Below are positions 14,571 to 64,000 of a DNA stretch of 64,000 nt, piece by piece. The stretch spans positions 12,404-76,403 of the forward strand of contig CAZWQJ010000001.1 of NCBI GenBank assembly GCA_964635825.1, given 5' to 3'. The notes beneath the pieces were generated by a model. That model searched no databases, had not been told where the DNA came from, and was given only the letters and a program-made list of their open reading frames with translations. This stretch comes from an uncultured Victivallales bacterium. GTDB lineage: Bacteria > Verrucomicrobiota > Kiritimatiellia > UBA8416 > JAIOPI01. A program made the translations under genes and the position numbers. Position 1 is the first letter of the stretch; each line of letters begins with the position of its first letter.

Positions 14571-14598
14571 ACCCGCAATCGTATCACTTTGGTATCAT
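14571..14598 (-). promoter_or_regulatory. Conserved upstream element, copy 1. Plus-strand sequence: acccgcaatcGTATCACTTTGGTATCAT.
   Basis: Lies 49-76 nt upstream of the SASA esterase gene start (14522), in the 14541-14629 intergenic region. Confidence 0.6.
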
Positions 14599-40700: not shown

Positions 40701-41054
40701 GAACCCGGGGGCCTCGAAGCCCGGCGGACAGGCGCCGGGCCGCGGCGCCAGGAAGAACGCCCAGAGCCCATCGAGTCGGCGTTGCCATGGCGATGCGGTA
40801 CCGGCGCGGGCATCGCCGGCGCTGGCACAGGCCTGCCAGGGGGCGTGCATCAGCTCGCGGTTGCGCTCGATCGCTCGCGGATCGTCCCACGGTGCGCCGG
40901 GGCCGCGGGGTTCCGCCACCGCCGCCGGGACGAGCCCCGAAGCAGGCGACGCTTCCGGTGGCACGGGCGCGACCACGGGACTCAAGGCGGTGGCGGCGGC
41001 ACGGCGTGCTCCTGGCATCGAACTCTCGCGTCTCGTGGTTGCCTTCGATTTCAT
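37773..41054 (-). CDS. Glycoside hydrolase family 2 beta-galactosidase (LacZ-like, with C-terminal domain 5).
   Basis: Colinear with LacZ: [18 protein letters not shown] (~WENPGVTQLNRLAAHPPF), [36 protein letters not shown], acid/base region, ~1090 aa. N-terminal ~50-aa extension. The start could be a downstream Met. Confidence 0.9.
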   Translation of the reverse strand: [1093 protein letters not shown]

Positions 41055-41064
41055 GCGGGGTGGC

Positions 41065-44000
41065 TCAGCGGACGACCATCAATACGCCGCCCCCACCCGC
41101 CGCGGTCGCGGTGAGCGTGATGGCTCTTCCGGCATGGTCATAGTGGATCAGGAAGGCGTAGTCTCCCGTCTTCACCGTGCGCCCCTCCGGCAAGCCCTGG
41201 AACTGCGTCCCGCTGAAATCGCCGGACACAATCGTGAACACCTGCCCAACCTGCACACCGGCGCCGTTTGGCACGCGCACGTTCAGTGCGGCGGTCCCCT
41301 CGCCCAGCGCGAAACGGCGCCCCGGGGCAATCAGCACCTGATCGTATCCGTTGGCGGCCGAGCCGCCGCCCGGTCCCTGGATATCGATATCCAGCGTCGA
41401 GCCGGCCAGCATCGTCACGTCGTTCAGCACGCTGAGCGAACCGGTCCCGCCGACGCCGCCGGGGGCGAGTGTCCCCGCATTCGTGATGGTCCCGCTGACG
41501 GTCACGGAGCCGCCAAACGTCGCGTTGGACGAAACCGCGACGGACGGGGACGCCAGCGCGTAGCGAACGAAGAGCGTGCCACCGGCCACCACCGTGGGGC
41601 CAAGATACTGGCTGATGCCGGCGAGCGTCTGCGTCCCCGATCCCACCTTGGTCAAGGCCACGCCGCCGCCGGTCCCATCCAGCAGCCCGTTGAAGGTGCC
41701 GGAGCCGTTATTCACGCCCACGGTCAGCACCGCTGGCTGGCGCGTCTGCGCCGACTGCCACTGGCACTGCACGGTCCCCAGCCCCGTGAGCGCGTCCACC
41801 CACATGTAACCGAACTGCCAGTGCGCCAGCTTCACCAGCGCTCCAGCGGCGATGTGCATGGAAGCCTTGTTGCTGCCGAACGCGCGCGGCGCTTCCGGAA
41901 TCCAGGGAAATCCGTTCTCCTCGCCACTGTCGTAATCGTGGAAGAGCGTTCCGTCCTGGATGTCCAGCAGGCCCCCGGACATGGCGTACTGGAAGTAGGC
42001 GTAGTGCGTGCAATCCCAGTCGAACGGGTCCGCCCCGCCACCGCAGAACCAGCGGCTCTCGTAATCGAACCCGCGCGGACCACTCTTCACGTAGGTACCG
42101 TTTCCCGTCAGCACGACCCGCTTGCGGATGATCTTATAGTCGCGCGTCACGGTGCTGAGTTCGACAACCGCATTGCTGCTCACATGGATGTTGGTGACGG
42201 ACAGTACGTCGAGGTCCCGCAGCACGACGCGCCCTTCCTCAATGGCCAGGACGCCGGAGAAGGCGTTGAACCCCGTGCCGGAGAAGGTCACGCTTCCCGG
42301 GCCGCGCTTCGTGAGGCCCTGGCTGCCCGACATCACCGCCGTGATCGTGCCATTGGTGTTGGCGGTGACAACCGACGGACCACTCACCGGGCTGCCCACC
42401 AGGGAGAGCGTGCCGCCGGCCAGCGTGTACTCGCCCGCGCCGGTCGGATCGAAACGCAGATCCTGCGCCAGCACGCTGCCTACACTCACCGTGCCCGCCG
42501 TGCCCTGGCCTCCGCCGAAGATTGCGAGCGCGTACCCGTTCGGCCAGGCGATGTTGTTGGTGTCCGCCCAGAAGTTCACATTGGTCGCGTTCCACCCGGC
42601 TCCGGCGCCGTCCTGTGGGCCGTACACGCCGGTGTTCGCATCGTAGATACCCCAGGTCCCGTCCCAAGGCGCGCGGGCGGTGGCGGTGAACGTCACCGGC
42701 GCCAGCGCCCCCGCACTGGCGCTCACCGTGTAGGTCCCGATCGCATCCCCCAGCGTCAGCGTGGTCGCCGCGAGCCCGAGCCCGTCGGAGATGGCGTTGG
42801 TAACGCCGAGTGACTGACCCGTGGCGCCGGGCGGCGTGGAGGCAATCGCGAAGCCGACCGTGACTCCCGGCACCGAATTCGTGAAGGCGTCGATCACCGA
42901 CACGACCAGCGGGTTGAGCAACGTCTGTCCCGCCAGTCGGCTCTGGTTGTTGCCCGCGCTCACCTGCAGGCGCGCGGCGGGCCCTGGGTTGACCGTGAAG
43001 GCGCCACTGGTCCCTGGCGTCATCGGGTCGCCGCCGGTGCCGCTCAGCGCCAGCACCACCCCGCTCTCGGCCCGCGTATAGGTGACGCCGGTGATGGTCG
43101 TGGTGTTGCCTCCCGCCGGAATCGTGCCCGCCAGGGTGCCGCTCAGCGCCCCGGTACCGGTGTGCAAGGTCAGCGCAACCGACGTATTCGTCGTGACCGC
43201 CAGCGGCTGGTTCAGCGCGTTCTGCGCCCGCACGACCACGCTGAACCCCAGGCCCGCCGTGGGGTTGGACCCGCCGTTCACAAAGAGAATCGCCAGCCGC
43301 CCGGCTCCGGTCGCGGTGAAGTGCACGGGACTGCCCGCCAGTCCAGTCCCGACGGCCGACACGGCATAGAGCCCGGGCTTGTCCCCCAGGGTGAGCGTGG
43401 CCGAGGCCTGTCCATTGGCGGCAGTGAAGACGTTGGTCGCGCTCAACGCCTGGCCGGCCGCCCCGCCCGGCGCGCCATCAAGGGTGAACGCGACCGGATA
43501 ACCCGGCACCGCATTGCCGTTCGCATCCCGCACCGTCACCACCATCGGACTCGCCAACGCCGTGGCCACCGTATTCGTCTGGGCGTCTCCCGTGGTCAGC
43601 GTCAGAGAGGAGGCTGGCCCGGGGTCAACGGTGAACGCCGCGCTATCTCCGGCCAGCATGAAGTCGCCGGCGGTTTGCGAGGCCATCAGTCGCACGCCGC
43701 TCTCGGCCTTCGTGTACGTCAGGCCGCTGACCGTGACGGCATTGCTGCCCGCCGGGATGGTCCCCGAGAGGGTGCCGCCCAGCACGCCGGCACCGGTCTT
43801 GAGGCTCAGCGCAAAGGACGTGTCCTGCGAAACCGGCGCCAGTTGGCCACCTCCATCGGCAGCCCCCACCAGAATGCCAAATGGCGCACCCGCAACCGGA
43901 TTCGTGCCGCCGTTCACAGACACGATCACGAGGTGGGGCGGAAGGTCCAGCGTGATGGTCTGCGCGTTGTAGTGCACCAACGCCGCGCCGGCCGGCTCCA

Positions 44001-47000
44001 CCCGCACCCCGCGGAAGGTTCCAACGATGCCGCCGCTCGCCCGCGCAACCTGCACGATCGGCGCCCCGAATACATCTCCCGTCAGCCCGGTGATATCCAC
44101 GACGAGTTCAAGTCCCGCGCAGCGGAAGACCGCGCCCGTATTCGCGAGGTTGACCAGGTCCGGCACGCTGCTCGGCGCCCGGATCCGCAGCGTCGTGTTC
44201 GTGGCGATGCTGGGAGCGGTGGCGCTGAGCAGGGTCAGCGTGCCGCTGTCCCCCGTCAGCGTCGGTTGCAGCGTGCCGCCGCTCTGCATGACCACCGCCC
44301 CGCCAAGCGTACCCCGCCCTCCCAGCGTCGCGTTCGTCTTCACCGTCAGCGAACCGGCACATGCCGTGTGGTCTCCATCCACCAGCAACACGCCGCCATT
44401 GATGGTGGTGGCGCCGGAGTAGTAATTCGTTCCGCTCAGGATCTGCGTGCCGGTGCCGTTCTTCGTGAACGCCAGGGACTGCCCGCTCGAGTTCGTTATC
44501 ACCCCCGCGAACGTGCCGGAGCCGTCGTTCGCGCCAACCGTGAACGCACCACCAAAGCCGGTGATGATGAGCTGCCCCGTGCCGGTGAGCGCATCCACCG
44601 TGAAGTTGTTGCCCGCCACCGATTGCGCCGACATCGTGACCCGCGCACCCGCCTCAATGTTCAGTGCCGCCCGGTTGTTCACCCAGTTGGGCGCCGCACC
44701 GGCCGTGCTCGCCGTGGCCGCAAACGTCCCAGCCTGGACATCGACCACTCCGCCCGTCATGGCGAAGGTCAACATGCCGGCTCCGCTGCCCGCGTTGAAC
44801 GTGCCGGCGCCCGATTTCGCCAACGTCCCTCCACCGCCGATCGTCGCCCCGTTCGCGGGTGTGTAGGTGCCCGTGTTGTTGAACTCGAGCGTCGCGCCGA
44901 CATCGATCGTGATCCCCGCGGCCGGCATCCAACTGCCGTAGTTGTTCAGGAGCAACCGCCCAGCCCCCATGCGCGCGCTTCCGCTGACGCTGTTGCCACC
45001 CGACAGCGTCAGGTCCGCTCCGCCGGCTTTCGTCAGCCCGGCCGTTCCCGCCAGCGCAGACTGGATGACGGCCGCACTGTTGGCCGTGAGCGTGGGCGCG
45101 GCACCAACGAGCGTGATGGTCCCGTTCGTCAGGGCGTACGCGCCCGATCCCGGCGGGTTGAACACGAGCCCATTCGCGTTCACCGTCCCAACCGTCACCA
45201 GCCCGGCGGCGCCAGTCCCTGCGCCGAAAACAGCCACATTCGTCGTCCCGTTCGGCCACGCGATGTTGCGGACGCCGTTCCAGAAATTGGAGCTCGCCGT
45301 ATTCCAGCCCGTACCGGTGCCGTCCTGCGCGCCCGGTGTACCGGTGTCGGCGTCATACGTCGCGGTCATGCCATCCCAGGGCGGCACCGCCATGGCCAGG
45401 AACGTCACCGGGCTGCCGCTCAACCCCGCCGCACTCGCCACGACGGCGTACGTGCCCGTGGCGTTGCCCAGTGTCAGCGTGCTCGACGCCTGCCCGCTCC
45501 CCGTCGTCGTGGCGTTCGTGCTGCTCAACGCCTGTCCCGTCGCGCCCGGCGGCGTCGCGGCAATCGCATACGCCACGTCGACGCCCGGCACCGCGTTGGT
45601 GTGCGCGTCCGTCACCGTCACCACCAAGGGCCCGAGCACCGTCCCCGCACCCCCGGTCTGGTTGTTGCCGGACGTCATGGCCAGCGCGGCGGCCGCCCCC
45701 GCATCGACGGTGAAGGCCGCACTCGTGCCGGCAGACAACGCATCGCCGCTCGTGCGCGTCGCCGTCAACACCACGCCGCTCTCGGCCTTCGTGTAGGTGA
45801 CGCCGGAAATGGAAACGGAATTGCTGCCGTTGGTGATGGTGCCCGTGAGCGTCCCGCCCAGCGTTCCGCTGCCCGCCGAGCGGCTGAGCACAACCGCCGT
45901 ATCGGACAGCACATGGCGCGGTACCCCGCCCGCATCCTGAGCCTGAACGACGACGCCAAAGCCGGTGCCCGCGCTCGGATTCGATCCACCGTTCACCAGC
46001 GTGATCGCCAGCGTCGTCGGCGGAATGGACGCGCCGGTGGCATTAAACGTCACCGGGCTGCCGCTGAGCCCGGCCGCACTCGCCGCCACCGTGTAGGCCC
46101 CCGTCACGCTGCCGATCGTTAACAGGCTCGATGCATGGCCATTCGCCAGCGTCGTCGCGTTGGTGAAGCTGAGCGATTGCCCCGTCGCCCCGGGCGGCGT
46201 GCCCGTGATCGCATAGGCAACCGCCGTACCGGACACCGGATTCGTGTGCGCATCCGTCACCGTCACCACAAACGGACTCGCCAGCGCCGTCAGCACGTCG
46301 CCGACCTGGCCATTTCCCGAGGTCAGCGAAAGCGTGGCGGGATCCCCCGCGACCACGGTAAACGCCGCACTGTCACCCGCCGCCAGCAAGTCCCCACTCG
46401 TCCGTGTGGCAGTGATGACCACGTTGGACTCGGCCTTGGTGTACGTCACGCTGCTGACGGTCACCTCGCTGGTGCCCGCGGCAATGGTGCCGTTCGTGGT
46501 TCCGCCCAGGGCGCCGCTGCCGCTCTTGAGAGTCAGCGCGAAGGCCGTATCCGCCGCCACGTTGGTCGCCCCGCTCAGCCCATCCTGCGCCTGCACCACC
46601 ACGCTGAACCCCACGCCGGAAACCGCATTCGTGCCGCCGTTCACGGACACGATCGCCAGGTTCGCGGCTTTGATCAGATCGACGGTGACGTTCGTAGGCG
46701 AGTACGCGAGCGTCGCCCGATACGAGCCCACCACGTTGGTGGTGTTGAACTTGCCGGCAACCCCGATCGCATTGGCCGTTTGCACGATCGTCGCACCCAT
46801 GACGTTGTTGGAGAGCGCCGTCGCGTCAAGGACCAGGTTGAGCGAGTTGCACCCGAAGACCGGCGTCGCGCTGCTCAAGGCCACCCTGTCCGTCGCACCG
46901 TCCGTCGCCCGGATCTTCAGCGTGGCGTATGCGCCGAATGTCGGCGCGGTATCGCTGGATAGTGTCAGGGTGCCGGGTGTACCCGACATCGTTGGCTGGA

Positions 47001-48129
47001 TCGTGCCGCCAGCGCTCACCGTCACGGCGCCATGGATCGTGCCCGATCCCCCGAGGGTACCTGTGCCCGCCACCGTGACCGCGCTGTTTGCTGGGAGCGA
47101 GCCGGGACTGTTCACCAGCAGCACGCCATTGCTGACCGTCGTCGAGCCGCCCAGCGTGTTGGTTCCGGAAAGCACCCAGGTGCCGGTGCCGTTCTTGATC
47201 AGCGACAGGGTGTTCCCGGAAATGGCGCCGGAAATCTTGCCGATCCCAGCCGTCGATCCCTGCAGTTGAAGTTGCTTGGCGCTGACAACCCCGGTCGCCA
47301 GTCCAACACTCCCCGACAACTCCAGTGTCCCGCCGGCGCCGGATTGGTCGAGAATGGACATGCTGCCCGGAAATGAGGCCGCCCCGTAGATCTTGATCGT
47401 GCGGTCCGTCGTTTCGCCGGCGCCGGTATACAGCACCTTGCCCGCGCTGCCCCCGAGGGTGCCCAGCGTGATGGTGCCGTTCGCCACCGTCGTGGGCCTG
47501 CCCAGGTTGCTGCTGGCGACAGGGGCGGAAACACGGTTCATCGACGCAACGCTCAGGGTACCCGGCCCACCGCTCGTGCCGCCGATCGTCACCGGACCGT
47601 CGAAGGTGTTCGCGCCTGACAAGACCAACGATCCCACGCCGGTGGTAATCAACCCTCGCCCCGCCGTTCCGCTGACAACGCCGCCGAGCGTCAGCGAACC
47701 GCTACCGAGCGTGACGGTCCGCGTCCCCGAGAGCGCTACATCGAGATTGACGGATTCCGCCACAACTCCCGTGCCGACGCTGATGTCGCCACCCAGCGTG
47801 ATCCCGTTGCCAAGGATGGTGTAGGCGTCGGCGCCGTTGTTGAACGCGATGCCGGCCACGGTGGTGCCGGCCGTGTCGTTCGTCAGCGTGGCGCCGCTGG
47901 CCCCGGCCGCGCCAAACGTGGGTGTATTCGTGGCGCCGAGCACACCTTCATTCCAGTTGGCGGCGGTGCCCCAAAGTGCATCGCCACCGTTGCCGTTCCA
48001 CGTCCGCGTGGCCGCCCGCGCCGCCCCGGCCGCCACCGCCAACCACACCGCTGCCCCAACCCGCACGCACGCGCGGACATGTGTTCGGCTCTTGGTTGCC
48101 CCCCTGCTTTCCATCCTATCCTCCGCCAC
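41065..48129 (-). CDS. 2354-aa secreted PATR surface protein with four large tandem Ig-like (BIG/invasin-like) modules and a C-terminal VLMVVR module.
   Basis: Signal peptide ...VRVGAAVWLAVAAGAARAATRTWNGNGGDALWGTAANWN. Numerous PATR repeats. ~230-aa modules repeated four times: VNGGTN...TYTKAESxVV...TSGNxQ...VVTVTDAHTN...AAGLSGSPVTF. Ends GDYAFLIHYDHAGRAITLTATAAGGGGVLMVVR. Confidence 0.8.
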   Translation of the reverse strand: MAEDRMESRGATKSRTHVRACVRVGAAVWLAVAAGAARAATRTWNGNGGDALWGTAANWNEGVLGATNTPTFGAAGASGATLTNDTAGTTVAGIAFNNGADAYTILGNGITLGGDISVGTGVVAESVNLDVALSGTRTVTLGSGSLTLGGVVSGTAGRGLITTGVGSLVLSGANTFDGPVTIGGTSGGPGTLSVASMNRVSAPVASSNLGRPTTVANGTITLGTLGGSAGKVLYTGAGETTDRTIKIYGAASFPGSMSILDQSGAGGTLELSGSVGLATGVVSAKQLQLQGSTAGIGKISGAISGNTLSLIKNGTGTWVLSGTNTLGGSTTVSNGVLLVNSPGSLPANSAVTVAGTGTLGGSGTIHGAVTVSAGGTIQPTMSGTPGTLTLSSDTAPTFGAYATLKIRATDGATDRVALSSATPVFGCNSLNLVLDATALSNNVMGATIVQTANAIGVAGKFNTTNVVGSYRATLAYSPTNVTVDLIKAANLAIVSVNGGTNAVSGVGFSVVVQAQDGLSGATNVAADTAFALTLKSGSGALGGTTNGTIAAGTSEVTVSSVTYTKAESNVVITATRTSGDLLAAGDSAAFTVVAGDPATLSLTSGNGQVGDVLTALASPFVVTVTDAHTNPVSGTAVAYAITGTPPGATGQSLSFTNATTLANGHASSLLTIGSVTGAYTVAASAAGLSGSPVTFNATGASIPPTTLAITLVNGGSNPSAGTGFGVVVQAQDAGGVPRHVLSDTAVVLSRSAGSGTLGGTLTGTITNGSNSVSISGVTYTKAESGVVLTATRTSGDALSAGTSAAFTVDAGAAAALAMTSGNNQTGGAGTVLGPLVVTVTDAHTNAVPGVDVAYAIAATPPGATGQALSSTNATTTGSGQASSTLTLGNATGTYAVVASAAGLSGSPVTFLAMAVPPWDGMTATYDADTGTPGAQDGTGTGWNTASSNFWNGVRNIAWPNGTTNVAVFGAGTGAAGLVTVGTVNANGLVFNPPGSGAYALTNGTITLVGAAPTLTANSAAVIQSALAGTAGLTKAGGADLTLSGGNSVSGSARMGAGRLLLNNYGSWMPAAGITIDVGATLEFNNTGTYTPANGATIGGGGTLAKSGAGTFNAGSGAGMLTFAMTGGVVDVQAGTFAATASTAGAAPNWVNNRAALNIEAGARVTMSAQSVAGNNFTVDALTGTGQLIITGFGGAFTVGANDGSGTFAGVITNSSGQSLAFTKNGTGTQILSGTNYYSGATTINGGVLLVDGDHTACAGSLTVKTNATLGGRGTLGGAVVMQSGGTLQPTLTGDSGTLTLLSATAPSIATNTTLRIRAPSSVPDLVNLANTGAVFRCAGLELVVDITGLTGDVFGAPIVQVARASGGIVGTFRGVRVEPAGAALVHYNAQTITLDLPPHLVIVSVNGGTNPVAGAPFGILVGAADGGGQLAPVSQDTSFALSLKTGAGVLGGTLSGTIPAGSNAVTVSGLTYTKAESGVRLMASQTAGDFMLAGDSAAFTVDPGPASSLTLTTGDAQTNTVATALASPMVVTVRDANGNAVPGYPVAFTLDGAPGGAAGQALSATNVFTAANGQASATLTLGDKPGLYAVSAVGTGLAGSPVHFTATGAGRLAILFVNGGSNPTAGLGFSVVVRAQNALNQPLAVTTNTSVALTLHTGTGALSGTLAGTIPAGGNTTTITGVTYTRAESGVVLALSGTGGDPMTPGTSGAFTVNPGPAARLQVSAGNNQSRLAGQTLLNPLVVSVIDAFTNSVPGVTVGFAIASTPPGATGQSLGVTNAISDGLGLAATTLTLGDAIGTYTVSASAGALAPVTFTATARAPWDGTWGIYDANTGVYGPQDGAGAGWNATNVNFWADTNNIAWPNGYALAIFGGGQGTAGTVSVGSVLAQDLRFDPTGAGEYTLAGGTLSLVGSPVSGPSVVTANTNGTITAVMSGSQGLTKRGPGSVTFSGTGFNAFSGVLAIEEGRVVLRDLDVLSVTNIHVSSNAVVELSTVTRDYKIIRKRVVLTGNGTYVKSGPRGFDYESRWFCGGGADPFDWDCTHYAYFQYAMSGGLLDIQDGTLFHDYDSGEENGFPWIPEAPRAFGSNKASMHIAAGALVKLAHWQFGYMWVDALTGLGTVQCQWQSAQTRQPAVLTVGVNNGSGTFNGLLDGTGGGVALTKVGSGTQTLAGISQYLGPTVVAGGTLFVRYALASPSVAVSSNATFGGSVTVSGTITNAGTLAPGGVGGTGSLSVLNDVTMLAGSTLDIDIQGPGGGSAANGYDQVLIAPGRRFALGEGTAALNVRVPNGAGVQVGQVFTIVSGDFSGTQFQGLPEGRTVKTGDYAFLIHYDHAGRAITLTATAAGGGGVLMVVR

Positions 48130-48144
48130 CCGCTCACTCCGTCG

Positions 48145-49866
48145 CTATCGCACGCTCATCAGCAGGCCGGTACTGTTGAACCCCGCCGATCGCGACGTGA
48201 GCACCACATTCCAGCCGCCCCCGTAGCTGATCACGAAGCGGTAAGGCCCCACGGCAATCTCCGCTCCTTCCGGCAGGTTGTGAAATGTCTCGCCCGTCAC
48301 GGCGCCGGAAACGATGGTCAGGGGTTGACCGTACGGAATGTTCACCCCGGCCGGCACCCGCACATTGAGCGTGATGACGCTGCCGCCGAGCTGCAGCGTC
48401 TTCCCTGGCATCACCACCAACTGATCGTATCCGCCCTCCGCCGCGCCCGCCGTCGTGCCGCGGATGTCGATGTCCAGCGTCGTCCCGCCGTTCATGAACA
48501 CGTTTTCCACGCCGAAGCGCCCTGTGGCTCCAATACCACCCGGCGCCAGCGTGCCGCCCGCCGCCACCGTCACCAGCGTGGTCAGGGCACCCACCCCGCC
48601 CAGGGTCGCTTTGTTCGCCACGTAGTACCACCCGCCTGCCGCATTGGTCGTGTGGTGCGCCCCGTTCACCAACAGCGTTCCCGCATTGACCGTCGTCGAA
48701 CCAAGATACGTATTCGTCGCGGCATTCAGGCTCCAGGTGCCGGCGCCGTCCTTGATCAGATTGCCGGACCCGCCGAACATGGCGTTCAGGGCGCCGTTCC
48801 CCGCCCCCGACAGCGTCAGATTGTGGCCATGGTCATGGATCACGTCCCAGCGGTTGGTGCCCGGAGGCGGAGTGCCCACGTTGAATACCTGCGGCCCGCT
48901 CGACTCGAGGGTCGCACCCGCCGGACCGATGGCGATCTGCCGGTCCAGGCGCCCTGCATCGCGGTTCCACCCGTTGTAACGCAGCGTGCCGCCGTCCAGC
49001 GTCAGGCTGGCTTCGAACCCAAGCTGCCCCAGCCCGAACCCGGCCTGCCCCCGCTGGTCGCCCCACGCATTCACCTCGAGCACCGCGCCTGTGCTCACCA
49101 GCACGGCCGGCGTCGTGCTCCACCCCAGGTCGCTGTACAACCCACCGTAGCCGTAGCCCTGCACCGCCAGCGTCCCAAATTCCACCCGCGTGTCGCCGGT
49201 GTACGTGTTGGTGACCGTCAGTTCCAGCGTGCCAAGCCCTTCTTTCGTGAGACTCGAACGCAACCAGTTCGTCCCACCGTCCGGATACGTCTCGTCCCGC
49301 AAGGGCGCCATCACCGTGAAGTCCGAGTCCGCGTTGCCCGTGACCTCATCCACCCAGAAGGTCGTGCTGGTTGCCAGATTCACGAAGTTGTGGTCCACCT
49401 CCGTGCGGCTCGTGATGCGGGACCCGGCCGGATTCGTGCCGACCACATAGACGTCGTGCGGCAACGAGAGCGCGCCGAAGTTGTTCAAATGGAACAGGCG
49501 ATTCATGAAGATCGTGCCGCCGTTTGTGAACGTCAGCAGGCGGGGCTGGTTCATGTAGGCGTAGTCGCTGCTCTGCAAGGTGCCGCTCTCGCCGACGTAC
49601 AATAGGAGCCGCTGCTGCTCGTTGTTGGTCGTCGCGATGACCGTACCGCTGTAGATCCGCGCGGCATCGAAGCTCTCGGATCTCGGGTAGGAATTCGTGG
49701 GCAGCAGTGAGCCGGTCAGATGCCAATTGGTCGTCGAGGTCCAGGAGTTGCTCACGCTCCCGTCCCACGTGTAGTCCGCATACTCGGACCGGCCGAGATG
49801 GGATGTCGCCACCGCCACCATGGCGACAGCAACCGCAGTCCGCCGCCATCCACGTCCTGTGTTCAT
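48145..49866 (-). CDS. 573-aa secreted PATR protein with the GLLMSVR C-terminal module.
   Basis: Preferred start MNTGRGWRRTAVAVAMVAVATSHLG at 49866: a signal peptide, with AGGGGG 8 nt upstream. The longest ORF extends to 50109 with a non-protein-like N-terminus. Ends ...VGPYRFVISYGGGWNVVLTSRSAGFNSTGLLMSVR. Paralogous N-terminal half with 50160..51308. Confidence 0.7.
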   Translation of the reverse strand: MNTGRGWRRTAVAVAMVAVATSHLGRSEYADYTWDGSVSNSWTSTTNWHLTGSLLPTNSYPRSESFDAARIYSGTVIATTNNEQQRLLLYVGESGTLQSSDYAYMNQPRLLTFTNGGTIFMNRLFHLNNFGALSLPHDVYVVGTNPAGSRITSRTEVDHNFVNLATSTTFWVDEVTGNADSDFTVMAPLRDETYPDGGTNWLRSSLTKEGLGTLELTVTNTYTGDTRVEFGTLAVQGYGYGGLYSDLGWSTTPAVLVSTGAVLEVNAWGDQRGQAGFGLGQLGFEASLTLDGGTLRYNGWNRDAGRLDRQIAIGPAGATLESSGPQVFNVGTPPPGTNRWDVIHDHGHNLTLSGAGNGALNAMFGGSGNLIKDGAGTWSLNAATNTYLGSTTVNAGTLLVNGAHHTTNAAGGWYYVANKATLGGVGALTTLVTVAAGGTLAPGGIGATGRFGVENVFMNGGTTLDIDIRGTTAGAAEGGYDQLVVMPGKTLQLGGSVITLNVRVPAGVNIPYGQPLTIVSGAVTGETFHNLPEGAEIAVGPYRFVISYGGGWNVVLTSRSAGFNSTGLLMSVR

Positions 49867-49882
49867 CGTCCGGCGCCCCCTG

Positions 49883-50030
49883 TTGATTCCTGCAGTAGTG
49901 CGTACCGTACCCGGACCGTCCACCATCGAAGGCTGGGGGGCAACCTTCATCACGCGGTACTGGGCGTACAGCGGGTTTCCTCGCTGCGGGATCAATCCCG
50001 GATCGCGGAACGCACTACTGCAGGAATCAA
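49883..50030 (-). promoter_or_regulatory. Perfect 20-bp inverted repeat, TTGATTCCTGCAGTAGTGCG (49883-49902) and CGCACTACTGCAGGAATCAA (50011-50030), enclosing 108 nt in the 5' leader of the PATR gene 48145..49866.
   Basis: The 3' arm of the predicted stem ends 16 nt before the ATG, directly abutting the GGGGG Shine-Dalgarno. The enclosed 108 nt contain a small hairpin, CGGGATCAATCCCG. Confidence 0.5.
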
Positions 50031-50137
50031 CGCAAGCCTTCTCCATTCCTTCGCGTCCCGTACGCCCCATCCCTGCACAACAACGGACCGCCCCGGAACG
50101 GCGATACATGAAATCTACCGCAAGCCGGCCACCCCCT

Positions 50138-50160
50138 CAAAACTATCAGTTTGGTATCAT
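50138..50160 (-). promoter_or_regulatory. Conserved upstream element, copy 3: CAAAACTATCAGTTTGGTATCAT.
   Basis: Overlaps the stop codon of 50160..51308. Lies upstream of the PATR operon 48145..49866 and 41065..48129. Confidence 0.6.
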
Positions 50161-51308
50161 CATTGGCCGGCGGTCGCGGCGGACACCAGCAGCGTGACGG
50201 CGGTCGGGGTGAGCTTCACCTCCCAACTCAGGCCCGGCGCCAGCACGGGCAAATTGGTGGCTGCGAACGCGCCGGTCACCTCCGCCCCCGTCAGGATGGT
50301 GAATCGATCACCAGCGACCGGCGCGTAACCGCGTGTCCGGACCGTCAGCGTCCCCCCGAGCGCGACCGCTCCGCTCGCCGCCAGGACGTCATACCCGCTC
50401 GCCGGCGTAGTCCCGAGAATATCCACCTCCAGAGTTCCCCCGGCATTCTGAGTGTAGCGCTTCTGGATGGAGAGCCGCCCGGCCCCGTCGCCAGGGCCGA
50501 CGATTCCATCCGAAACCACCTCGCCGCCGATGGTCCCATCCCCGCACAGCGTGGCACCGGAGGCCACCGTCACGCCGCCGGCCCCAAGCGAACCGCGAAC
50601 CAACAGGGCTCCCGCGCGAACGGTCGTGGTCCCGCTGTATGCGTTCGCGGCCGCCAGTTCCAGCGTTCCCGGCCCGTCCTTCACCAAGCTCGCCGGAACC
50701 CACGTCGTCCCCTGCCCCAAATCGGCGCCATCCGCCAGCGGCGCCGCGATCCTCAGATCCGGCTTCGCGTCGCCGGTCAGGTCGTAAACCTGCAACGTCG
50801 CCGTCGCCGGCAGATTGATGAAGTTGTGTTCGGTCGCTCCCCTCGCTTCGATCAAGGCCGGCTGCCAGTGCCGCCCGGTGACCCAAACCGTGGCCGGCAG
50901 CAGCAGCGCGCCGTAGTTGTTGTAGTGTGCATTGCGGACGAGCGCGAGCGCGCCGCCGCCGGAGAACGTCAGCAACGCCGGTTGTCCCATGTAGTTCATT
51001 TCGTTGCACGCCACCGTGCCATTGGTGCCGATGATGAGGAACAGCCCCTTCACCTGGTCCTTGTGATCGCAGGTTGCCGTGCCGCTGTACACGCAGGCAA
51101 TGTCACCGGGCACCGGCGCCGGGCCGTTCCACCCGACCGCGGTCCCGTCGCCCCAGGTGCTCGTCCCCCCGTTCCATGTCAGGCTGGCCGCCGCGGCCAA
51201 CTGGACACCCAGGGCGGCCATCCACACACCAACCCAACACCCCACAACCCGCATTGCCCGGAACGCGTACGGACGTGAATGGCTTGTCATGCGACTATTC
51301 TCCTGCAT
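50160..51308 (-). CDS. 382-aa secreted PATR protein (paralog of 48145..49866, lacking the LLMSVR tail).
   Basis: Signal-like MRVVGCWVGVWMAALGVQLAAAASLTWNGGTSTWGDG. PATR repeats (KDGPGTLELAAANAYSGTTTVRAGALLV). Its stop codon overlaps a copy of the conserved upstream element. Confidence 0.7.
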   Translation of the reverse strand: MQENSRMTSHSRPYAFRAMRVVGCWVGVWMAALGVQLAAAASLTWNGGTSTWGDGTAVGWNGPAPVPGDIACVYSGTATCDHKDQVKGLFLIIGTNGTVACNEMNYMGQPALLTFSGGGALALVRNAHYNNYGALLLPATVWVTGRHWQPALIEARGATEHNFINLPATATLQVYDLTGDAKPDLRIAAPLADGADLGQGTTWVPASLVKDGPGTLELAAANAYSGTTTVRAGALLVRGSLGAGGVTVASGATLCGDGTIGGEVVSDGIVGPGDGAGRLSIQKRYTQNAGGTLEVDILGTTPASGYDVLAASGAVALGGTLTVRTRGYAPVAGDRFTILTGAEVTGAFAATNLPVLAPGLSWEVKLTPTAVTLLVSAATAGQ

Positions 51309-51318
51309 GTCGAATTCC

Positions 51319-54300
51319 CTACTCGAACGTGATAATGGTCGTCAGCGGCAGCAACACGGTGAAGACCGCACTCCCCGACTGGCCTGCGCCCGTCACGATG
51401 AACGATTGCGCGCCACCGGTCACGGACGGTGTCACGCTGACACCTGACAACACGCCCGCCGTGAAGGCCCCCGAGGTGCCCGTGATCCCGGCCGTGCCGC
51501 TGTAGGTCACTGTGCCGCCGAAACCGGTGACGGTGTTGTTGAACGCATCCTGCGCCGTCAGCATGATGCCGGTGATGGGCGTGCCCGCCCGCTGCGGCGA
51601 CGCGATCGCCGAAATGGCAAAGTGGTCCAGCGGCCCGGGCGTGTAGCTGACGACCGACGCCGACGCCCCCACCGCCGTCCCCACCGCGGTCCCATTCATC
51701 GTGGCCACGAACGTCCCCGCCCCCGTCGCCGTCGGCGCCGTCACGGTCGCCGTGTACGTCCCGTCGCCATTGTCCGTCGTGGCGCCGACAGTGCCCGTCC
51801 CCGATTGCTTCGCAATCACCACGGTCTCGCCGCCGGCGGTCACGTTGACGTCATGGATATCCCGCCCCTGAACGGTGAGGACCGCCGTGCTGACCCCATC
51901 CGCCGCGATCAACGCCGGCGCCGCCGAGACGGTCGAATGCGCCGCATCCGCCGCAGACAGATCGAGGGTGATTGTGCCGCCGGCCGCGTTGTAGCTCACC
52001 GTGCCTCGGTAGCTCGTGTTCCCGATCACGGTGACGCTGCGGAACGCGCCACTGACGCCGCCGTTGCCGTGAGCCGAGGCGTCGACGATCGTCGCTCCCG
52101 CTATCGTGCCGCTGAGACCGGTCGTGTCGATAACCAAGTCCAGGTTGCCGCACGCGAAGGTGGCCGCGCCGTTGCTCAGGAGCACCTTGTCCGCGTAGGC
52201 GGTGCCCGTGATCGTCGTCGCACGGATGCGCAGGCTGCTGGCCGCGCCAAATGCGGGTGCGGTGGCGCTCGACAGCGTGAGCGTTCCAGGCTGCCCCGAC
52301 AGCGTGGGCTGAAGCGTGCTGCCGGCGCTGAATGCGACGGGGTTGGCGACCGTGCCGTTGCCGCCCAGCGTGCCACCACGGCGAACGGTCATGGTGCCGC
52401 CATCAAAGTTGTACGTGCCCGTGTTGAACAGCACAGCCCCCGCGTTGATGGTGAAGCTGTTGTAGCCGCCGCTGCCCGTGGTACCGCCGCTCAACACCAC
52501 CGTCCCCGGCCCGGCTTTCACGTAGTAGGCCGTGTAGGCACGCAATGCGGACCCGATCTCCAGCGCATTCGCCGTGTTCCACTGCTGGATGTAGACCGTG
52601 CCCAGATACCCCGCCTGCAGCGTGCCCCCGGCGATCCGGCTGAGGTTGTTCCCGACGTTCGGACTCACGAGGATGCCGCCGTTGCTGCCGTCGCCCACCG
52701 TGCACGTCCCCGACAAGGTCAGCGTCCGCGCCGCGGCCGCGTGGAAGCGCAGGCTCTCGCACGTCGCACCGGACACGGAGTTGTCGGCCGTCACATTCAC
52801 GTTGTTGCCCGACGCCCAGGTGTTGTTGACGTAACCCGCGTACGCCGTCACAGCGGTGTCGCTCGCCGAGGCCGCCGTCGCGGCCCAGTCCGTACCCGCC
52901 ACCGTCGCCCAGCCGCCCAGGATCCCCGAACTCTTGTTGGCCGTATCGCTGTCTGCCAGGCTCGCCACACCGAAGTCCACCGTCCCGCCATTGCTGGTGG
53001 AAACCCCGTTCATCCGCAGCGTGGCGGAGCCGCCGGATCGCACCACGCGATTCGCCCCGGACCCGAGTTGCGCCGAACCCACTGCCTCGGTGTGGGAGCC
53101 GCCGGCGAGGGTCAGCGCCGTGCCGTTCAGCGTCAGCGTCGAGGCGTCCGCCAGCTTCGAGCTATTCTGGTTTGCGAAATCCAGCGTGAACGCCCCGTCG
53201 CTGACGGTTGTGGCCCCGCTATACGTGTTCGCGCCCGACAGCACGAGCGTACCCGCGCCGGCCTTGGTCAGCCCCGCCGAACCCGCGATCGCCGCGCTGA
53301 TCGTTACGGCCTTCGTCCCTCCCAGCGCGTTCACCGTGAGCGTCGGCGTGCCGCCCGCCAGGGTCACCGTGTTGGCGGCGTTGCCGTCGTTGTCCAGGGT
53401 CCAGCCCGCCGCCGTGTTGGTGTCTACATCACCAAAGGCGAGGTCCTCGACGGTCACGGGAACGTCCACATGCACGGTGTTGTCCGCGGTCAGGTTTAGT
53501 GTGCCAAAGTACGCCGTGCGACCGGATCCGTAAGCCACATTGCCACCGCTCCAGTTGCCGGTGGCCATCCAGCTGCCGCCGCTGCCGGTGCGCGTCCAGG
53601 TGCCATCGCTCGTCGCCGGCACGCCGTACGCCGTGAACGTCACCGGACTGCCGCTCAGCCCCGCCGCCGTCGCCGTCACCGTGTAGGTCCCCAACTTGTC
53701 CCCCAGCGTCAGCGTGCTCGCGGCCTGCCCATTGCCCCCCGTCTGCGGACTCGACGCGCTGAGCGATTGCCCCACCGCACCGCCCGGAACCGTGCCGATC
53801 GCGATGCTCACCGTCGTCCCGCTCACCGGGTTGCCATGCTCGTCCGTCACCGTCACCACAAGCGGGCTGGCCAGCGCCGTGCTCATCGTCGTGCTCTGGT
53901 TGTTGCCCGATGTCAACGCCATGGCGTGCGCCGCGCCGGCGTTCACCGTGGTAATGGTCGCGGAACCGTTGTGACTGGAGCCATCCGTGACCGTGATCGT
54001 CTTCCCGCTGCCGGCGCTGGTCGCGGTCACACTCGGGCTGCTCAGCACCCCGCCCGAGAATGCGGCCGAAGTTCCCGTAACCCCCGCCGTGCCCCCGTAC
54101 GTCACGGTGCCCGCAAACGCGTTCGGCCCCGTGCTGCACGCGTTACCGTAGGCGTCCTTGGCCGTGATGCTCGTGAGCGCAAACGGCGTCCCCGCCGTCG
54201 CTGAGGCCACCGTCGCGGGTGCAATCGTGAACTGGCTCACCGGCCCCGGGTTGATGGTCGTGATCGTGGCGCTGCCGGTGTGACCAGCCCCGTCGTTCAT

Positions 54301-57018
54301 CGTGATGGTCAGACTGCTGCCCGCGTTCGTGGGCGTTACCGAGGCATTGCAGATGCCGCTCGCGAAGGCCGGCGACGCCCCCGTCACACCCGCCGTGCCG
54401 CCGAAGGTCACGGTGGCGCCGGTGTAGTCGGTCACCGTGCTGCCGCCGCCATTCTTGGCCGTGATCGTAATCGCCACCGGCGTGCCCGCCGTCTGCGGCG
54501 AGCCGATCGCATCGATGTCGAAGTGGTCCACGGCACCCACTAGCGTGATGACGCACTGCGACGCACCCACCGCCGTCCCCACCGCCGTGCCGCCCAGCGT
54601 CGCCGTCACCGTCGCGCTGCCGGACCCGACCGAAGAAGGCGCCGTCCATGTGGCCGTGTACGTCCCGTCGCCGTTGTCCGTGGCGCTGCCCACGGATCCC
54701 TCGGTCGCGCTGAAGACCACGGCGTCGCCGCCGATGCCGCGGTTGTTGTCGCTCGCGTCGCGCGCCGTCACCGTCACCGCGAGCGTGCTCACGCCACCCG
54801 CGCTCTTGACCGCCGTCACCGGATTGAGGGTGGAATGCGCGGCGTTCACCGCTCCGACCAGATCCAGCGTGATCGTGCCGGCGGCCGTGTTGTAGTGCAC
54901 CGTCGCCTCGTAGGACCCGCCATTCTGCAGCGTGACGCTGTGGAAGGTGCCGCTGACCCCGCCATTGCCATGCGCCGACGCGTCGACGATCGTCTTCCCC
55001 GCAAACCCGCCTGAAAGACCCGCCGCATCGATCACCAGGTCCACGTTGCCACAGGCAAACGCCGCGCCGGCGTGGCTCAGCACCACCTTGTCCGGCGTGC
55101 TCGACGGCGCGCGAATCTTCAACGTGCTGTAGGCGCCAAAGGCGGGCGACGAGGAACTCGCGAGGGTCAGCGCCGCGGCCGCGCCGGAGAGCGACGGCTG
55201 GATCGTCCCGCCGGCGTCCACCGTCACCGCATCCCTGTACGTCCCGTTGCCGCCCATGATGGCGCCGCTGCGAACGGTCAGCGGCCCGTTGTAGTAGCTG
55301 CTGGTGTTGAACAGCACCGCGCCCTGGTTGATGCGGAACCCATTGTAGTAATCGTACAGATCGGGAGCCCCGCCGCTGAGCAGCAGCGTTCCAGGCCCCG
55401 TCTTGACGTAGGTGATTTGGTTGTTGTTGAGCGCGCTGGCAATCTGCAGCACGTTGGCGGTGTTCCACTGCTGCAGATAGACGGCGGAGTCGGTGGTGCC
55501 CAGATCGCTGCCGCTGATGAGGCAGAGGTTGTTGCCGACTGCCGGCGTCACAAGGATGCCGCCCGCCGTGGAACTCGAACCGGCCCCCAGACTGCAGCGC
55601 CCCGTAAGCGTCAGCGTATAGGCGCCGGCGCTGTTGAACCGCAGCGTGTTGGGTGACGCCGCGCCGATCGTCTGGCTACTGACGATGTCGACATTCTGCC
55701 CGGCATAGTTCGCCGCCGTGTCGCCGCCGCTGGTTGAGGGATAGTACGTCGCCAGCGCCGTCACCGGCGTGTCGCCGGCCGAGGACGCCGTCACCGCCCA
55801 GTCCGCGCCCGCCACCGTCGCCCAGCCGCCCACGATCCCGTAGCCGTTGTTCGCGGTGTCGCTTTCCGCGATGCCCGCCGCGCCGAAGTCCACCGTGGCA
55901 TCGCCGCTCACCGCCAGCGCATTCAGCCGCAGCACGCTGCCCCCACTCGACCGCGTCACGGCACTCGCCCCGGCGTTGACCGTGAGGCCGTTGACGACTT
56001 CGGTGTACGTCCCGCCGCTCAGATCCAGCGTCGCCCGCGTCAGGCTCAACGCCGATCCCGATGCCAGCTTCGCGTTGTTCTGGCTCGCGTAGTCCAGCCG
56101 CAGCGTGCCCGCATGTACCGCCGCCGCGCCGCTTAACGTGTTGGCTCCGGCCAGCACCAGCGTGCCCGCGCCGGCCTTGGTCAAGCCTGCCGAGCCCCCC
56201 ACCGCCGCGCTGATGGTCGCGCTCATCGTCCCGCCCAGCGCGTTCACCGTGACCGTCGGCGTCGTCCCCGCCAGCGTCACCGTGTTCGCGGCGTTGCCGT
56301 TGTTGTCCAGCGTCCACCCCGCTGCCGTGGCCGTGGCGGCATCGCCAAAGGTCAGGCTGCCGATCGTCACCGGCTGATTCAGGTGAACCGTGTTATCCGC
56401 CGTCAGGTCCAGCGTGCTGAAGTCCGCCGTGCTGCCGGAGCCGTACGCGATGGCGCTTGCGCTCCAGTTCCCGGCCGTGAACCAGTCCCCGCCACTCGCC
56501 GTCTGCGTCCAGGTCCCGCTCGCGGACGCCGGCACCGCATACGCCGTGAACGTCACCGGGCTGCCGCTCAACCCCGCCGCCGTCGCCGTCACCGTGTACA
56601 TCCCCAACTTGTCGCCCAGCGTCAATCGGCTGGACGCCTGCCCGTTTGCGCCGGTCGTCGGGGCGGCAGCGCTCAGCGCCTGCCCCGACGCCCCGCCGGG
56701 CACCGTGTCGATCGCGTAGTTCACCGTCGTGCCGCTCACCGGGTTGCCATAGACATCCGTGACCGTCGCCACAAACGACGAACCCAACTGCGCGCCCGTG
56801 GTGCCGTTCTGGTTGTTGCCCGAGGTCAGGGCGATGGCGTGGGCCGACGCGGAACTCACCGTCGTGATCGTGGCCGAACCCGTATGGCCGGAGCCGTCAT
56901 CCACCGTGATCGTCTTGCCGCTGCCCGCGCTCGTTGCCGTCACGCTCGGGCTGCTCAACACGCCCGCCGAGAACGCGGCCGAGGTTCCCGTCATCCCCGC
57001 CGTCCCACCGTACGTCAC
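51319..57018 (-). CDS. C-terminal 1899 codons of the same giant PATR gene. Open frame with no credible own start or signal peptide.
   Basis: Same reading frame as 57115..62790: both ORF 3' coordinates are 0 mod 3. The 'M' at 57018 is a GTG inside continuous repeat sequence. Translation through 57019-57114 gives ATAGTPFALTSITAKDVYGNACDSGANEFTGTVTYGGTAG, which continues the repeat seamlessly. Confidence 0.6.
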   Translation of the reverse strand: MTYGGTAGMTGTSAAFSAGVLSSPSVTATSAGSGKTITVDDGSGHTGSATITTVSSASAHAIALTSGNNQNGTTGAQLGSSFVATVTDVYGNPVSGTTVNYAIDTVPGGASGQALSAAAPTTGANGQASSRLTLGDKLGMYTVTATAAGLSGSPVTFTAYAVPASASGTWTQTASGGDWFTAGNWSASAIAYGSGSTADFSTLDLTADNTVHLNQPVTIGSLTFGDAATATAAGWTLDNNGNAANTVTLAGTTPTVTVNALGGTMSATISAAVGGSAGLTKAGAGTLVLAGANTLSGAAAVHAGTLRLDYASQNNAKLASGSALSLTRATLDLSGGTYTEVVNGLTVNAGASAVTRSSGGSVLRLNALAVSGDATVDFGAAGIAESDTANNGYGIVGGWATVAGADWAVTASSAGDTPVTALATYYPSTSGGDTAANYAGQNVDIVSSQTIGAASPNTLRFNSAGAYTLTLTGRCSLGAGSSSTAGGILVTPAVGNNLCLISGSDLGTTDSAVYLQQWNTANVLQIASALNNNQITYVKTGPGTLLLSGGAPDLYDYYNGFRINQGAVLFNTSSYYNGPLTVRSGAIMGGNGTYRDAVTVDAGGTIQPSLSGAAAALTLASSSSPAFGAYSTLKIRAPSSTPDKVVLSHAGAAFACGNVDLVIDAAGLSGGFAGKTIVDASAHGNGGVSGTFHSVTLQNGGSYEATVHYNTAAGTITLDLVGAVNAAHSTLNPVTAVKSAGGVSTLAVTVTARDASDNNRGIGGDAVVFSATEGSVGSATDNGDGTYTATWTAPSSVGSGSATVTATLGGTAVGTAVGASQCVITLVGAVDHFDIDAIGSPQTAGTPVAITITAKNGGGSTVTDYTGATVTFGGTAGVTGASPAFASGICNASVTPTNAGSSLTITMNDGAGHTGSATITTINPGPVSQFTIAPATVASATAGTPFALTSITAKDAYGNACSTGPNAFAGTVTYGGTAGVTGTSAAFSGGVLSSPSVTATSAGSGKTITVTDGSSHNGSATITTVNAGAAHAMALTSGNNQSTTMSTALASPLVVTVTDEHGNPVSGTTVSIAIGTVPGGAVGQSLSASSPQTGGNGQAASTLTLGDKLGTYTVTATAAGLSGSPVTFTAYGVPATSDGTWTRTGSGGSWMATGNWSGGNVAYGSGRTAYFGTLNLTADNTVHVDVPVTVEDLAFGDVDTNTAAGWTLDNDGNAANTVTLAGGTPTLTVNALGGTKAVTISAAIAGSAGLTKAGAGTLVLSGANTYSGATTVSDGAFTLDFANQNSSKLADASTLTLNGTALTLAGGSHTEAVGSAQLGSGANRVVRSGGSATLRMNGVSTSNGGTVDFGVASLADSDTANKSSGILGGWATVAGTDWAATAASASDTAVTAYAGYVNNTWASGNNVNVTADNSVSGATCESLRFHAAAARTLTLSGTCTVGDGSNGGILVSPNVGNNLSRIAGGTLQAGYLGTVYIQQWNTANALEIGSALRAYTAYYVKAGPGTVVLSGGTTGSGGYNSFTINAGAVLFNTGTYNFDGGTMTVRRGGTLGGNGTVANPVAFSAGSTLQPTLSGQPGTLTLSSATAPAFGAASSLRIRATTITGTAYADKVLLSNGAATFACGNLDLVIDTTGLSGTIAGATIVDASAHGNGGVSGAFRSVTVIGNTSYRGTVSYNAAGGTITLDLSAADAAHSTVSAAPALIAADGVSTAVLTVQGRDIHDVNVTAGGETVVIAKQSGTGTVGATTDNGDGTYTATVTAPTATGAGTFVATMNGTAVGTAVGASASVVSYTPGPLDHFAISAIASPQRAGTPITGIMLTAQDAFNNTVTGFGGTVTYSGTAGITGTSGAFTAGVLSGVSVTPSVTGGAQSFIVTGAGQSGSAVFTVLLPLTTIITFE

Positions 57019-62908: not shown

Positions 62909-62931
62909 CAAAACTATCACTTTGGTATCAT
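62909..62931 (-). promoter_or_regulatory. Conserved upstream element, copy 4: CAAAACTATCACTTTGGTATCAT.
   Basis: Lies in the divergent intergenic region between the giant PATR gene (start 62790/62736) and the GntR-type regulator gene (start 62986). Confidence 0.6.
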
Positions 62932-62985: not shown

Positions 62986-64000
62986 ATGAGCATGATTCGC
63001 ACGCCGCACGCCCTGCCGCCGCTGGCGCCGCACGCCGCGGAGTTCCTGCGCCTGGCGCAGACCCGCACCCAGACCGCCGCGCTGCTTGACCTTCTGCGCC
63101 GCATCGCCCGTGACGCCCGCCGCGGCGACCGCCAGCGCTTCTACCCCGCCCGCGCCGTGGGCGACGCCTTCCGCGTTCCCCTGCCAACCGTGCTCCGCGT
63201 CTTTGCCGAACTGGAGAAGGAGGGCATCCTGCTGCGCGTCCGCGGGTCCGGCACCCTGCTCCAGCCGCGCCAGGCCAAACCATCCGCCTCCGTCCGCGGC
63301 GTCGTCGGGCTGCCCCTCTGGCAATACGGCTACTGCAACCTCACAGATTGGCGCCTCTTCGTGGCGGCCCTCTCGGACGCCCTGCGCCATCGCGGCTACG
63401 TCGCGGACCTCATCTTCTTCCAGTCCGGCGAACAGCCCCGCCTGCTGGATCAGTTGATGGCGCACCACCTCGACTGGATCGTCTGGTTCAAACCGCGGCA
63501 GGAGCACAGTATGATCGCGCAGATGCTAGCCGATCGCGGCGTGCACACCGCGGTCGTCATGCAGCGCTACGTCAACCTCTCCCTCCCCTCCTACCATCTG
63601 CGCTTCGATAACGCCATCCGCCGCGCCTTCGCGGCCTGGCGGCGCGACGGAATCCGCTCGGTCGTCGTCGCCCAACCCTGGCCCCTGGATCCGGACTCCG
63701 AGTGGCCGAGCTGGCTGCGCTGGCGCCTGAAGGAGGCGCGCATGGACTGCCATTTCGAGTTCCTGCCCGACTGGCAGCACTTCCCGACACTCTGCGCGCA
63801 CCTTACACGCCGCGCGACCAGCGGCATCTGGCTACCGGATGACTGGTTTGGCGGCTTTGCCTCTGAGGACCACGCCAGGCGCATGGCGAACCTCCTCCAG
63901 CGCAAGCGGGTGCTCATCGGGGGGCGCCTTGAAATGCCCGCCGTCTACCTGGCGGGCTGCCGGATCGATGCCACGGTCCAGGACTGGCCGGCGATCACGT
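62986..64000 (+). CDS. GntR-family HTH transcriptional regulator fused to a LacI/periplasmic-binding-protein-type sugar-binding domain (AraR-like architecture). Partial, runs off the window end.
   Basis: Starts MSMIRTPHALPPLAP at 62986. GntR wHTH block FYPARAVGDAFRVPLPTVLRVFAELEKEGILLRVRGSGTLL. A PBP-like C-terminal region follows. Open to nt 64000 without a stop. It is divergent from the giant PATR gene, and the shared intergenic region holds a copy of the conserved element. Confidence 0.8.
   Translation, partial: MSMIRTPHALPPLAPHAAEFLRLAQTRTQTAALLDLLRRIARDARRGDRQRFYPARAVGDAFRVPLPTVLRVFAELEKEGILLRVRGSGTLLQPRQAKPSASVRGVVGLPLWQYGYCNLTDWRLFVAALSDALRHRGYVADLIFFQSGEQPRLLDQLMAHHLDWIVWFKPRQEHSMIAQMLADRGVHTAVVMQRYVNLSLPSYHLRFDNAIRRAFAAWRRDGIRSVVVAQPWPLDPDSEWPSWLRWRLKEARMDCHFEFLPDWQHFPTLCAHLTRRATSGIWLPDDWFGGFASEDHARRMANLLQRKRVLIGGRLEMPAVYLAGCRIDATVQDWPAIT

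Follow-up and report, generated by a model that had tools for sequence, protein, structure and literature searches.

A 150-bp palindromic element in the non-coding leader of a PATR protein gene from an uncultured Victivallales bacterium

The stretch of DNA analysed here as a whole, which we call the window, comprises 64,000 nucleotides of one contig from an uncultured Victivallales bacterium. It has about 67% G+C and carries almost all of its genes on the minus strand. Its main component is an array of very large PATR/Big_1/Invasin_D3 surface-protein genes. The window also encodes a GH2 beta-galactosidase, beta-helix proteins, SASA esterases, a GDSL lipase, a deacetylase, AraA and an ABC transporter. 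No recombinase or transposase domains were found in the window, and the gene list for about 8 kb beyond its start contains LTD/CotH and rhamnosidase genes only, with no recombinase. One PATR/Big_1/Invasin_D3 gene of about 3798 aa, called as a single gene in assembly L001, falls into two ORFs (1891 and 1899 aa) in the window because of an in-frame TAG at 57115-57117 (minus strand), where L001 has TCG (2705-2707). A nonsense polymorphism and a sequencing error are the two possible causes.

The element described below lies between two PATR genes of the array. On the minus strand, the stop codon TGA of the upstream PATR gene (50162-50160) is followed by a conserved box, a promoter-like pair, about 74 nt of leader, the first arm of an inverted repeat, 98 nt, the second arm and AGGGGG. 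The features are listed in this order, with the basis of each assignment in brackets.

50143..50160, minus strand: conserved 18-nt box ATGATACCAAACTGATAG, overlapping the upstream PATR stop codon (sequence, two strains)
50112..50140, minus strand: promoter-like TTGAGG (50140-50135), 17-nt spacer and TAGATT (50117-50112) (sequence; inference)
50032..50105, minus strand: upstream part of the leader, non-coding, divergent between strains (strain alignment)
50006..50031, minus strand: left (5') arm GTTGATTCCTGCAGTAGTGCGTTCCG (sequence, repeat search)
49908..50005, minus strand: interior, 98 nt (predicted fold, promoter/terminator scan)
49882..49907, minus strand: right (3') arm CGGTACGCACTACTGCAGGAATCAAC (repeat search, strain comparison)
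49876..49881, minus strand: AGGGGG, Shine-Dalgarno-like, adjoining the 3' arm, 9 nt before ATG 49866 (sequence; inference)
48145..49866, minus strand: gene of a PATR (autotransporter-associated beta-strand repeat) protein, 573 aa from ATG 49866 (Pfam, ORF)

The PATR assignment of the downstream gene comes from Pfam (PF12951, E=3e-14), and the N-terminus of the 573-aa protein resembles a signal peptide (MNTGRGWRRTAVAVAMVAVATSHLGRSEYA). We consider ATG 49866 a better start than ATG 49821, because AGGGGG stands 9 nt upstream of it and the substitutions between strains follow a codon-like pattern. Public gene calls (P0001/P0121, 558 aa) begin at ATG 49821, 15 codons further downstream, and a start there deprives the likely signal peptide of its positively charged n-region. 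The 3' arm had been described in the sequence-only reading as ending at the Shine-Dalgarno sequence of ATG 49866, which holds: the arm stops at 49882 and AGGGGG occupies the next positions, 49881-49876.

The reading frame of the gene is also open from ATG 50109, and a start there would place the repeat inside coding sequence. We rejected this start after comparison with a second strain of the same species (L006/L007/L017, Logan runs SRR27007084/78/80), which loses both the ATG and the frame. The ATG itself is replaced in that strain, +1 and -1 indels between it and the repeat scramble the frame, and the translated segment between the indels is unrelated. Moreover, ATG 50109 sits 2 nt past the -10-like hexamer TAGATT. 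We assign the repeat to a 5' leader about 240 nt long, transcribed from a putative promoter, and its position between the conserved upstream box and the start codon is as originally described.

Outside its own species, we found no relatives above 53% identity of the PATR gene or of its upstream neighbour. The upstream 382-aa PATR gene has a single distant homologue, L008:1291-2822 (53% identity), which is followed by two genes with prepilin-type N-methyl domains and lacks the present leader and gene. Since the downstream context in L008 differs, the arrangement of the locus is species-specific.

The box has the consensus ATGATACCAAA[C/G]TGATA[G/C] and occurs three times in the window against 0 expected, at 50143-50160, 62914-62931 and 14581-14598 (minus strand). 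Each copy is positioned 2-4 nt upstream of a TTGnnn-17/18-TAnnnT pair and before large surface-protein or esterase genes. In the second strain the box at our locus is identical and the promoter-like pair is kept, while the flanks of the box are divergent. A strict sigma-70 consensus scan did not call the TTGAGG-17-TAGATT pair. The box probably serves a small regulon as operator plus promoter. The three box-associated leaders have only the box and the -35/-10 pair in common. Nothing downstream of these aligns, hence the paralogous leaders are uninformative as a test for an insertion. An ORF on the plus strand (62986-64000) diverges from the box promoter of the 62790 gene and runs past the window end. 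It gave no Pfam match over its 338 aa and is a candidate regulator of the box.

A repeat search of the window delimited an inverted-repeat element of 150 bp (49882-50031) with 26-nt arms at 49882-49907 and 50006-50031. The arms are complementary at 25 of 26 positions (96%) and pair through a perfect 22-nt core, one T/T mismatch (U.U in RNA) and 3 further pairs. The perfect 20-bp inverted repeat on which the sequence-only reading was built is therefore real and stronger than claimed, while the 108 nt given as the distance between its 20-bp arms becomes 98 nt between the extended ones. The 20-mer TTGATTCCTGCAGTAGTGCG matches the window at exactly two places, 49883-49902 (+) and 50011-50030 (-). 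No further match was found in the 64 kb at up to 3 mismatches, and 100 dinucleotide shuffles gave 0 matches, so that a 20/20 match is indeed beyond chance in a sequence of this length. Among inverted repeats no more than 500 nt apart, these arms are the longest and cleanest of the entire 64 kb, the next-best being 74-94% complementary or at most 18 nt long. The 22-nt arm core has about 45% G+C compared with 67% for the genome, a value taken from the window composition. The 150-bp unit is thus a discrete palindromic element, present in one copy as far as searched, which lies in a non-coding leader and is inherited stably in two strains.

RNA structure prediction, proposed earlier as a check, returned a very stable stem at -85 to -93 kcal/mol. 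The 150-nt element alone has a predicted folding energy of -85.4 kcal/mol. The 181-nt stretch 49860-50040 reaches -93 kcal/mol (z = -6.65), an energy matched by 0 of 200 shuffles. As expected of a palindrome, the opposite strand is predicted to be almost as stable. In the predicted fold, the 22 perfect pairs are followed by the U.U mismatch, 3 pairs, about 13 imperfect pairs inward and a tip of three hairpins. It contains a near-perfect double-stranded stem of at least about 20 bp, which is a trait of RNase III-processed hairpins. The two other box-associated leaders have ordinary structure (z = +0.8 and +1.1).

The more specific RNA-level roles suggested for the stem fared less well. Control of translation by a thermosensor or a riboregulator is not supported, because the Shine-Dalgarno sequence is not inside the stem and its predicted pairing depends on the strain. 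In the window strain GGGG is predicted to pair with GCUU of the flanking leader, and this pairing is lost in L006, where the flank differs. An RNA thermometer masking the Shine-Dalgarno sequence lacks support for the same reasons, as the predicted accessibility of this sequence is not conserved between the strains. No U-tract follows the stem, the sequence there being AGGGGGCGCC, which speaks against an intrinsic terminator and against the attenuator that had also been considered. A terminator scan near the element gave only an unrelated weak site at 50105-50087. Known RNA families (riboswitch, leader, sRNA) were rejected on the Rfam covariance models, which gave no match at gathering score in the window and only noise in 49700-50300 (E >= 0.38, at most 19 bits), and a search for tRNA or tmRNA found none.

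The second strain is about 92.8-92.9% identical to the window over 16.5 kb. The element differs between the strains at 4 of 150 positions (2.7%), whereas in the leader just upstream (50032-50135) 26 of 105 alignment columns differ (about 25%, indels included). The change-over falls at the outer edge of the left arm: the last difference is 1 nt outside the arm and the next 27 nt are identical. Relative to the window-strain fold, two of the four substitutions are at unpaired positions, one turns a G-C pair of the long stem into G-U, and one is a U to C change at a paired position whose partner was not checked. The G-U pair results from C49885 being T in L006, which adds a mismatch between the arms. 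All four substitutions would be compatible with the predicted fold of the window strain, and we estimate the chance of this at about 7%. The inner predicted folds differ between the strains.

Purifying selection on the element is not proven by this comparison. Its 2.7% is far below the 25% of the adjacent leader and the regional 14%, but it is indistinguishable from the divergence at local four-fold sites. In the first kb of the downstream gene (49000-49999), 6 of 164 four-fold sites differ (3.7%) against 14% overall, and at the end of the upstream gene the value is 17%. Because the local four-fold divergence is equally low, the conservation of the element is inseparable from a low-divergence (recombination) tract, and the low divergence may reflect such a tract rather than constraint. 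That the upstream end of the tract coincides with the arm edge is notable. From 38142 to 54682, divergence between the window and L006 is mosaic, with four-fold values of 2.5%-47% per 500 nt and a peak at 42000-43500, inside a 2354-aa PATR gene. The mosaic pattern points to an adhesin array in which recombination or diversifying exchange is frequent.

The arms also coincide with breaks in the assemblies. When the 16 ends of eight full-length contigs were mapped over about 13 kb, three fell in the 52 nt of the arms, where about 0.06 were expected. These breaks come from three samples and are the end of L011 at 50012 and the starts of L004 and L005 at 50026 and 49891, respectively. Contig L003 begins at 50277, exactly where a different inverted repeat, with 11-nt arms (50267-50277 / 50316-50326), has its edge. 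The short-read assemblies thus seem to be broken by inverted repeats. True heterogeneity is no more likely a cause of the breaks in the arms than fold-back chimeras or a loss of coverage related to the hairpin.

Three explanations compete with a role of the element in the mRNA of the downstream gene. The one raised by the sequence-only reading is a relic or low-copy MITE which landed in the leader, with arms that served as transposase-binding terminal repeats and without a selected regulatory role. Its geometric part stands, since terminal inverted repeats around a short non-coding core, as in MITEs, are present. A length of 150 bp, 26-bp near-perfect terminal repeats and the lack of coding capacity fit bacterial MITEs (PMC2649163; PMC10969869). 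A+T is more frequent in the arms than in the genome, comparison of the strains shows a sharp outer boundary, and the leader is about 150 nt longer than at the paralogous promoter 62931. However, the search for other copies of the 20-mer, which had been proposed as a check, found none. A second copy of arm or interior was seen neither in the 64 kb of the window, with up to 3 mismatches allowed, nor in about 37 kb of three other loci (L008, L013, L014). Neither the 20-mer nor a gapped 12+12 core occurs in 185,579 GTDB species-representative genomes, a set from which the own species is absent, and the JGI metagenome collection, plasmids and phages gave no copy either. As the collections scanned exclude the organism itself, whose own DNA was covered over about 72 kb, these searches make only very high copy numbers (hundreds) unlikely. 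The flanks GGCTTGC (before GTTGATT at the outer end of the left arm) and AGGGGGC (after AATCAAC at that of the right arm) show no direct duplication of a target site. The element is at the same site in both strains with no empty site, and Pfam found no transposase in the window. We consider this origin without function unlikely. A REP-like intercistronic hairpin, which would act as a 3' exonuclease barrier or insulator for the upstream PATR transcript (gene end 50160) and not in the leader of the downstream gene, appears to us very improbable. Such a role would suit a very stable hairpin without a U-tract, 129 nt past the upstream stop in a same-strand gene array, and the tight packing of the genes makes read-through from upstream plausible. 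On the other hand, the box and promoter-like sequence between the upstream stop and the hairpin argue for a separate transcript start, and other tight junctions (48129/48145, 51308/51319) have no such hairpin. The element resembles REP, BIME and ERIC sequences as a stable intergenic hairpin without a U-tract between same-strand genes, provided that it is transcribed. Those, however, are multi-copy families with shorter stems, whereas this element is solitary and its stem, near-perfect over 26 bp, closes a structured loop of 98 nt.

The remaining alternative is an invertible switch of the Clostridioides difficile cwpV/flgB type, in which a recombinase would flip the 98-bp segment in the 5' UTR and one orientation would silence the surface-protein gene after transcription initiation. 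Inverted repeats around a short segment upstream of a gene, the arrangement of invertons, are present here, the arms are compositionally distinct and the gene product is adhesin-like and at the surface. At cwpV of C. difficile, 21-bp inverted repeats enclose 195 bp between promoter and ORF, the gene product being a cell-wall protein (PMC2784873), and at flgB 21-bp inverted repeats enclose 154 bp in the 5' UTR (PMC5386303). Geometry and position at our locus match both of these RecV-dependent switches: in each case imperfect repeats of about 21-26 bp flank a short segment that belongs to the 5' UTR of a gene for a surface structure and follows the promoter (PMC2784873; PMC5386303). The three of 16 contig ends within the arms, from three samples, could come from graph branching at an inversion. 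Against this, all 10 assemblies with the interior show the same orientation, in 10 samples and two strains 7% apart. The count was made at assembly level, as in the flgB paper, on the window, L001, L002, L003, L004, L010, L012, L006, L007 and L017; nine of the 10 cover the whole element and L004 begins inside the left arm. An inverted allele, whose junction would read ...GGCTTGC-GTTGATTCCTGCAGTAGTGCGT-ACCGTACCCGGACC..., was sought through the product of the antisense ORF (49720-50328, plus strand), for which there is no protein on record. The breaks at 50012, 50026 and 49891 are off the branch points 50010 and 49903 that, by our reasoning, a clean inversion bubble would have. A consensus scan and inspection found no promoter- or terminator-like asymmetry in the interior on either strand, although host promoter rules may differ. 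By inspection, the arms have no internal dyad symmetry, which speaks against 26-bp sites of the hix/gix type, and in L006 they carry an extra mismatch. Pfam found no recombinase in the window ORFs or in the gene list for about 8 kb beyond the window start. Inverton recombinases can be remotely encoded, RecV being an example. The present segment thus differs from cwpV and flgB in its length of only 98 bp, its single orientation in 10 assemblies, the lack of a nearby recombinase and the lack of a recognisable orientation-specific terminator. On balance, we find an inverton improbable. It is slightly more doubtful still that the locus is a cwpV/flgB-like phase switch of 98 bp with a strong bias to one orientation and a remote recombinase, of which the arm breaks in three samples would be the footprint of minority inverted molecules. 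Two further classes were set aside on inspection. An integron attC site does not fit, as it would need the opposite order of the GTTRRRY/RYYYAAC-like ends and a cassette array is missing, and no reverse transcriptase for a retron or DGR is nearby.

We tentatively favour the explanation that the element is a transcribed leader hairpin which would act as a double-stranded-RNA processing or stability site, by analogy with Correia elements; it is the best of the candidates rather than a probable one. It is favoured because the repeat is beyond chance, the fold is stable, the site is non-coding, a box and promoter-like pair lie upstream, and the element differs at 4/150 positions against 26/105 in the adjacent leader. 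Several points count against it. To our knowledge, functional RNA helices rarely have 22 perfect Watson-Crick pairs. The promoter is putative, and the strict sigma-70 scan did not call it. The collections searched also contain no homologous element elsewhere that would allow covariation to be tested.

In the proposed mechanism, transcription would start near 50105 from the box-associated promoter or enter by read-through from the upstream gene. The arms would pair in the mRNA into a 26-bp stem (22 perfect Watson-Crick pairs), continued inward by imperfect pairs. Perfect double-stranded RNA of two helical turns is a classical RNase III substrate and, as the stem is of this kind, post-transcriptional action is most likely. 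Cleavage by RNase III, or its protective binding, in the stem would separate the gene from the upstream leader or operon. The resulting mRNA would have its 5' end a few nt before the Shine-Dalgarno sequence, which would set mRNA stability and translation efficiency. What the sequences themselves show is the repeat, its single occurrence as far as searched, its non-coding position, its presence in near-identical form in two strains and the predicted fold, while transcription through it, RNase III action and any effect on expression are what we infer. As for the origin of the element, the perfect and A+T-richer arms together with the sharp outer boundary point to an event at the DNA level, probably a mobile-element relic or a local inverted duplication, over slow selection of a stem at the RNA level.

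The closest known parallel is found in the Correia elements of Neisseria (CREE/NEMIS), which have 26-bp repeats and a total length of about 105-157 bp. Those that lie between a promoter and a gene are included in the mRNA, where RNase III binds or cleaves them (PMC2649163). Our element shares with them the 26-bp terminal inverted repeats, a similar length, the non-coding nature and the position in a 5' leader (PMC2649163). Unlike them, it has no sequence similarity to Correia elements and is single-copy as searched, against at least 100 copies in Neisseria. It also lacks a TA/CA target duplication, a match to an IHF site in the interior (by inspection) and presence/absence polymorphism between the two strains. 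We therefore class the element as one that would work like a Correia-type leader hairpin and as a member of neither the MITE nor the inverton family, since for the former no second copy was found in the sequences searched, no target duplication and no polymorphism between the two strains, and for the latter no second orientation in the 10 assemblies and no recombinase within about 72 kb.

Whichever explanation applies, it is of a known class, and the finding concerns a single locus of a single species. In practical terms, the repeat breaks short-read assemblies in its arms, which is relevant when such loci are interpreted. If the element were a true switch, its 98-bp segment would be among the smallest known, and flipping would extend UTR-embedded phase switches to an uncultured high-G+C lineage. 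Should it serve as a processing or stability signal, it would be a case of a single palindromic insertion rewiring the expression of one gene of a large adhesin-like array, outside the well-studied pathogens.
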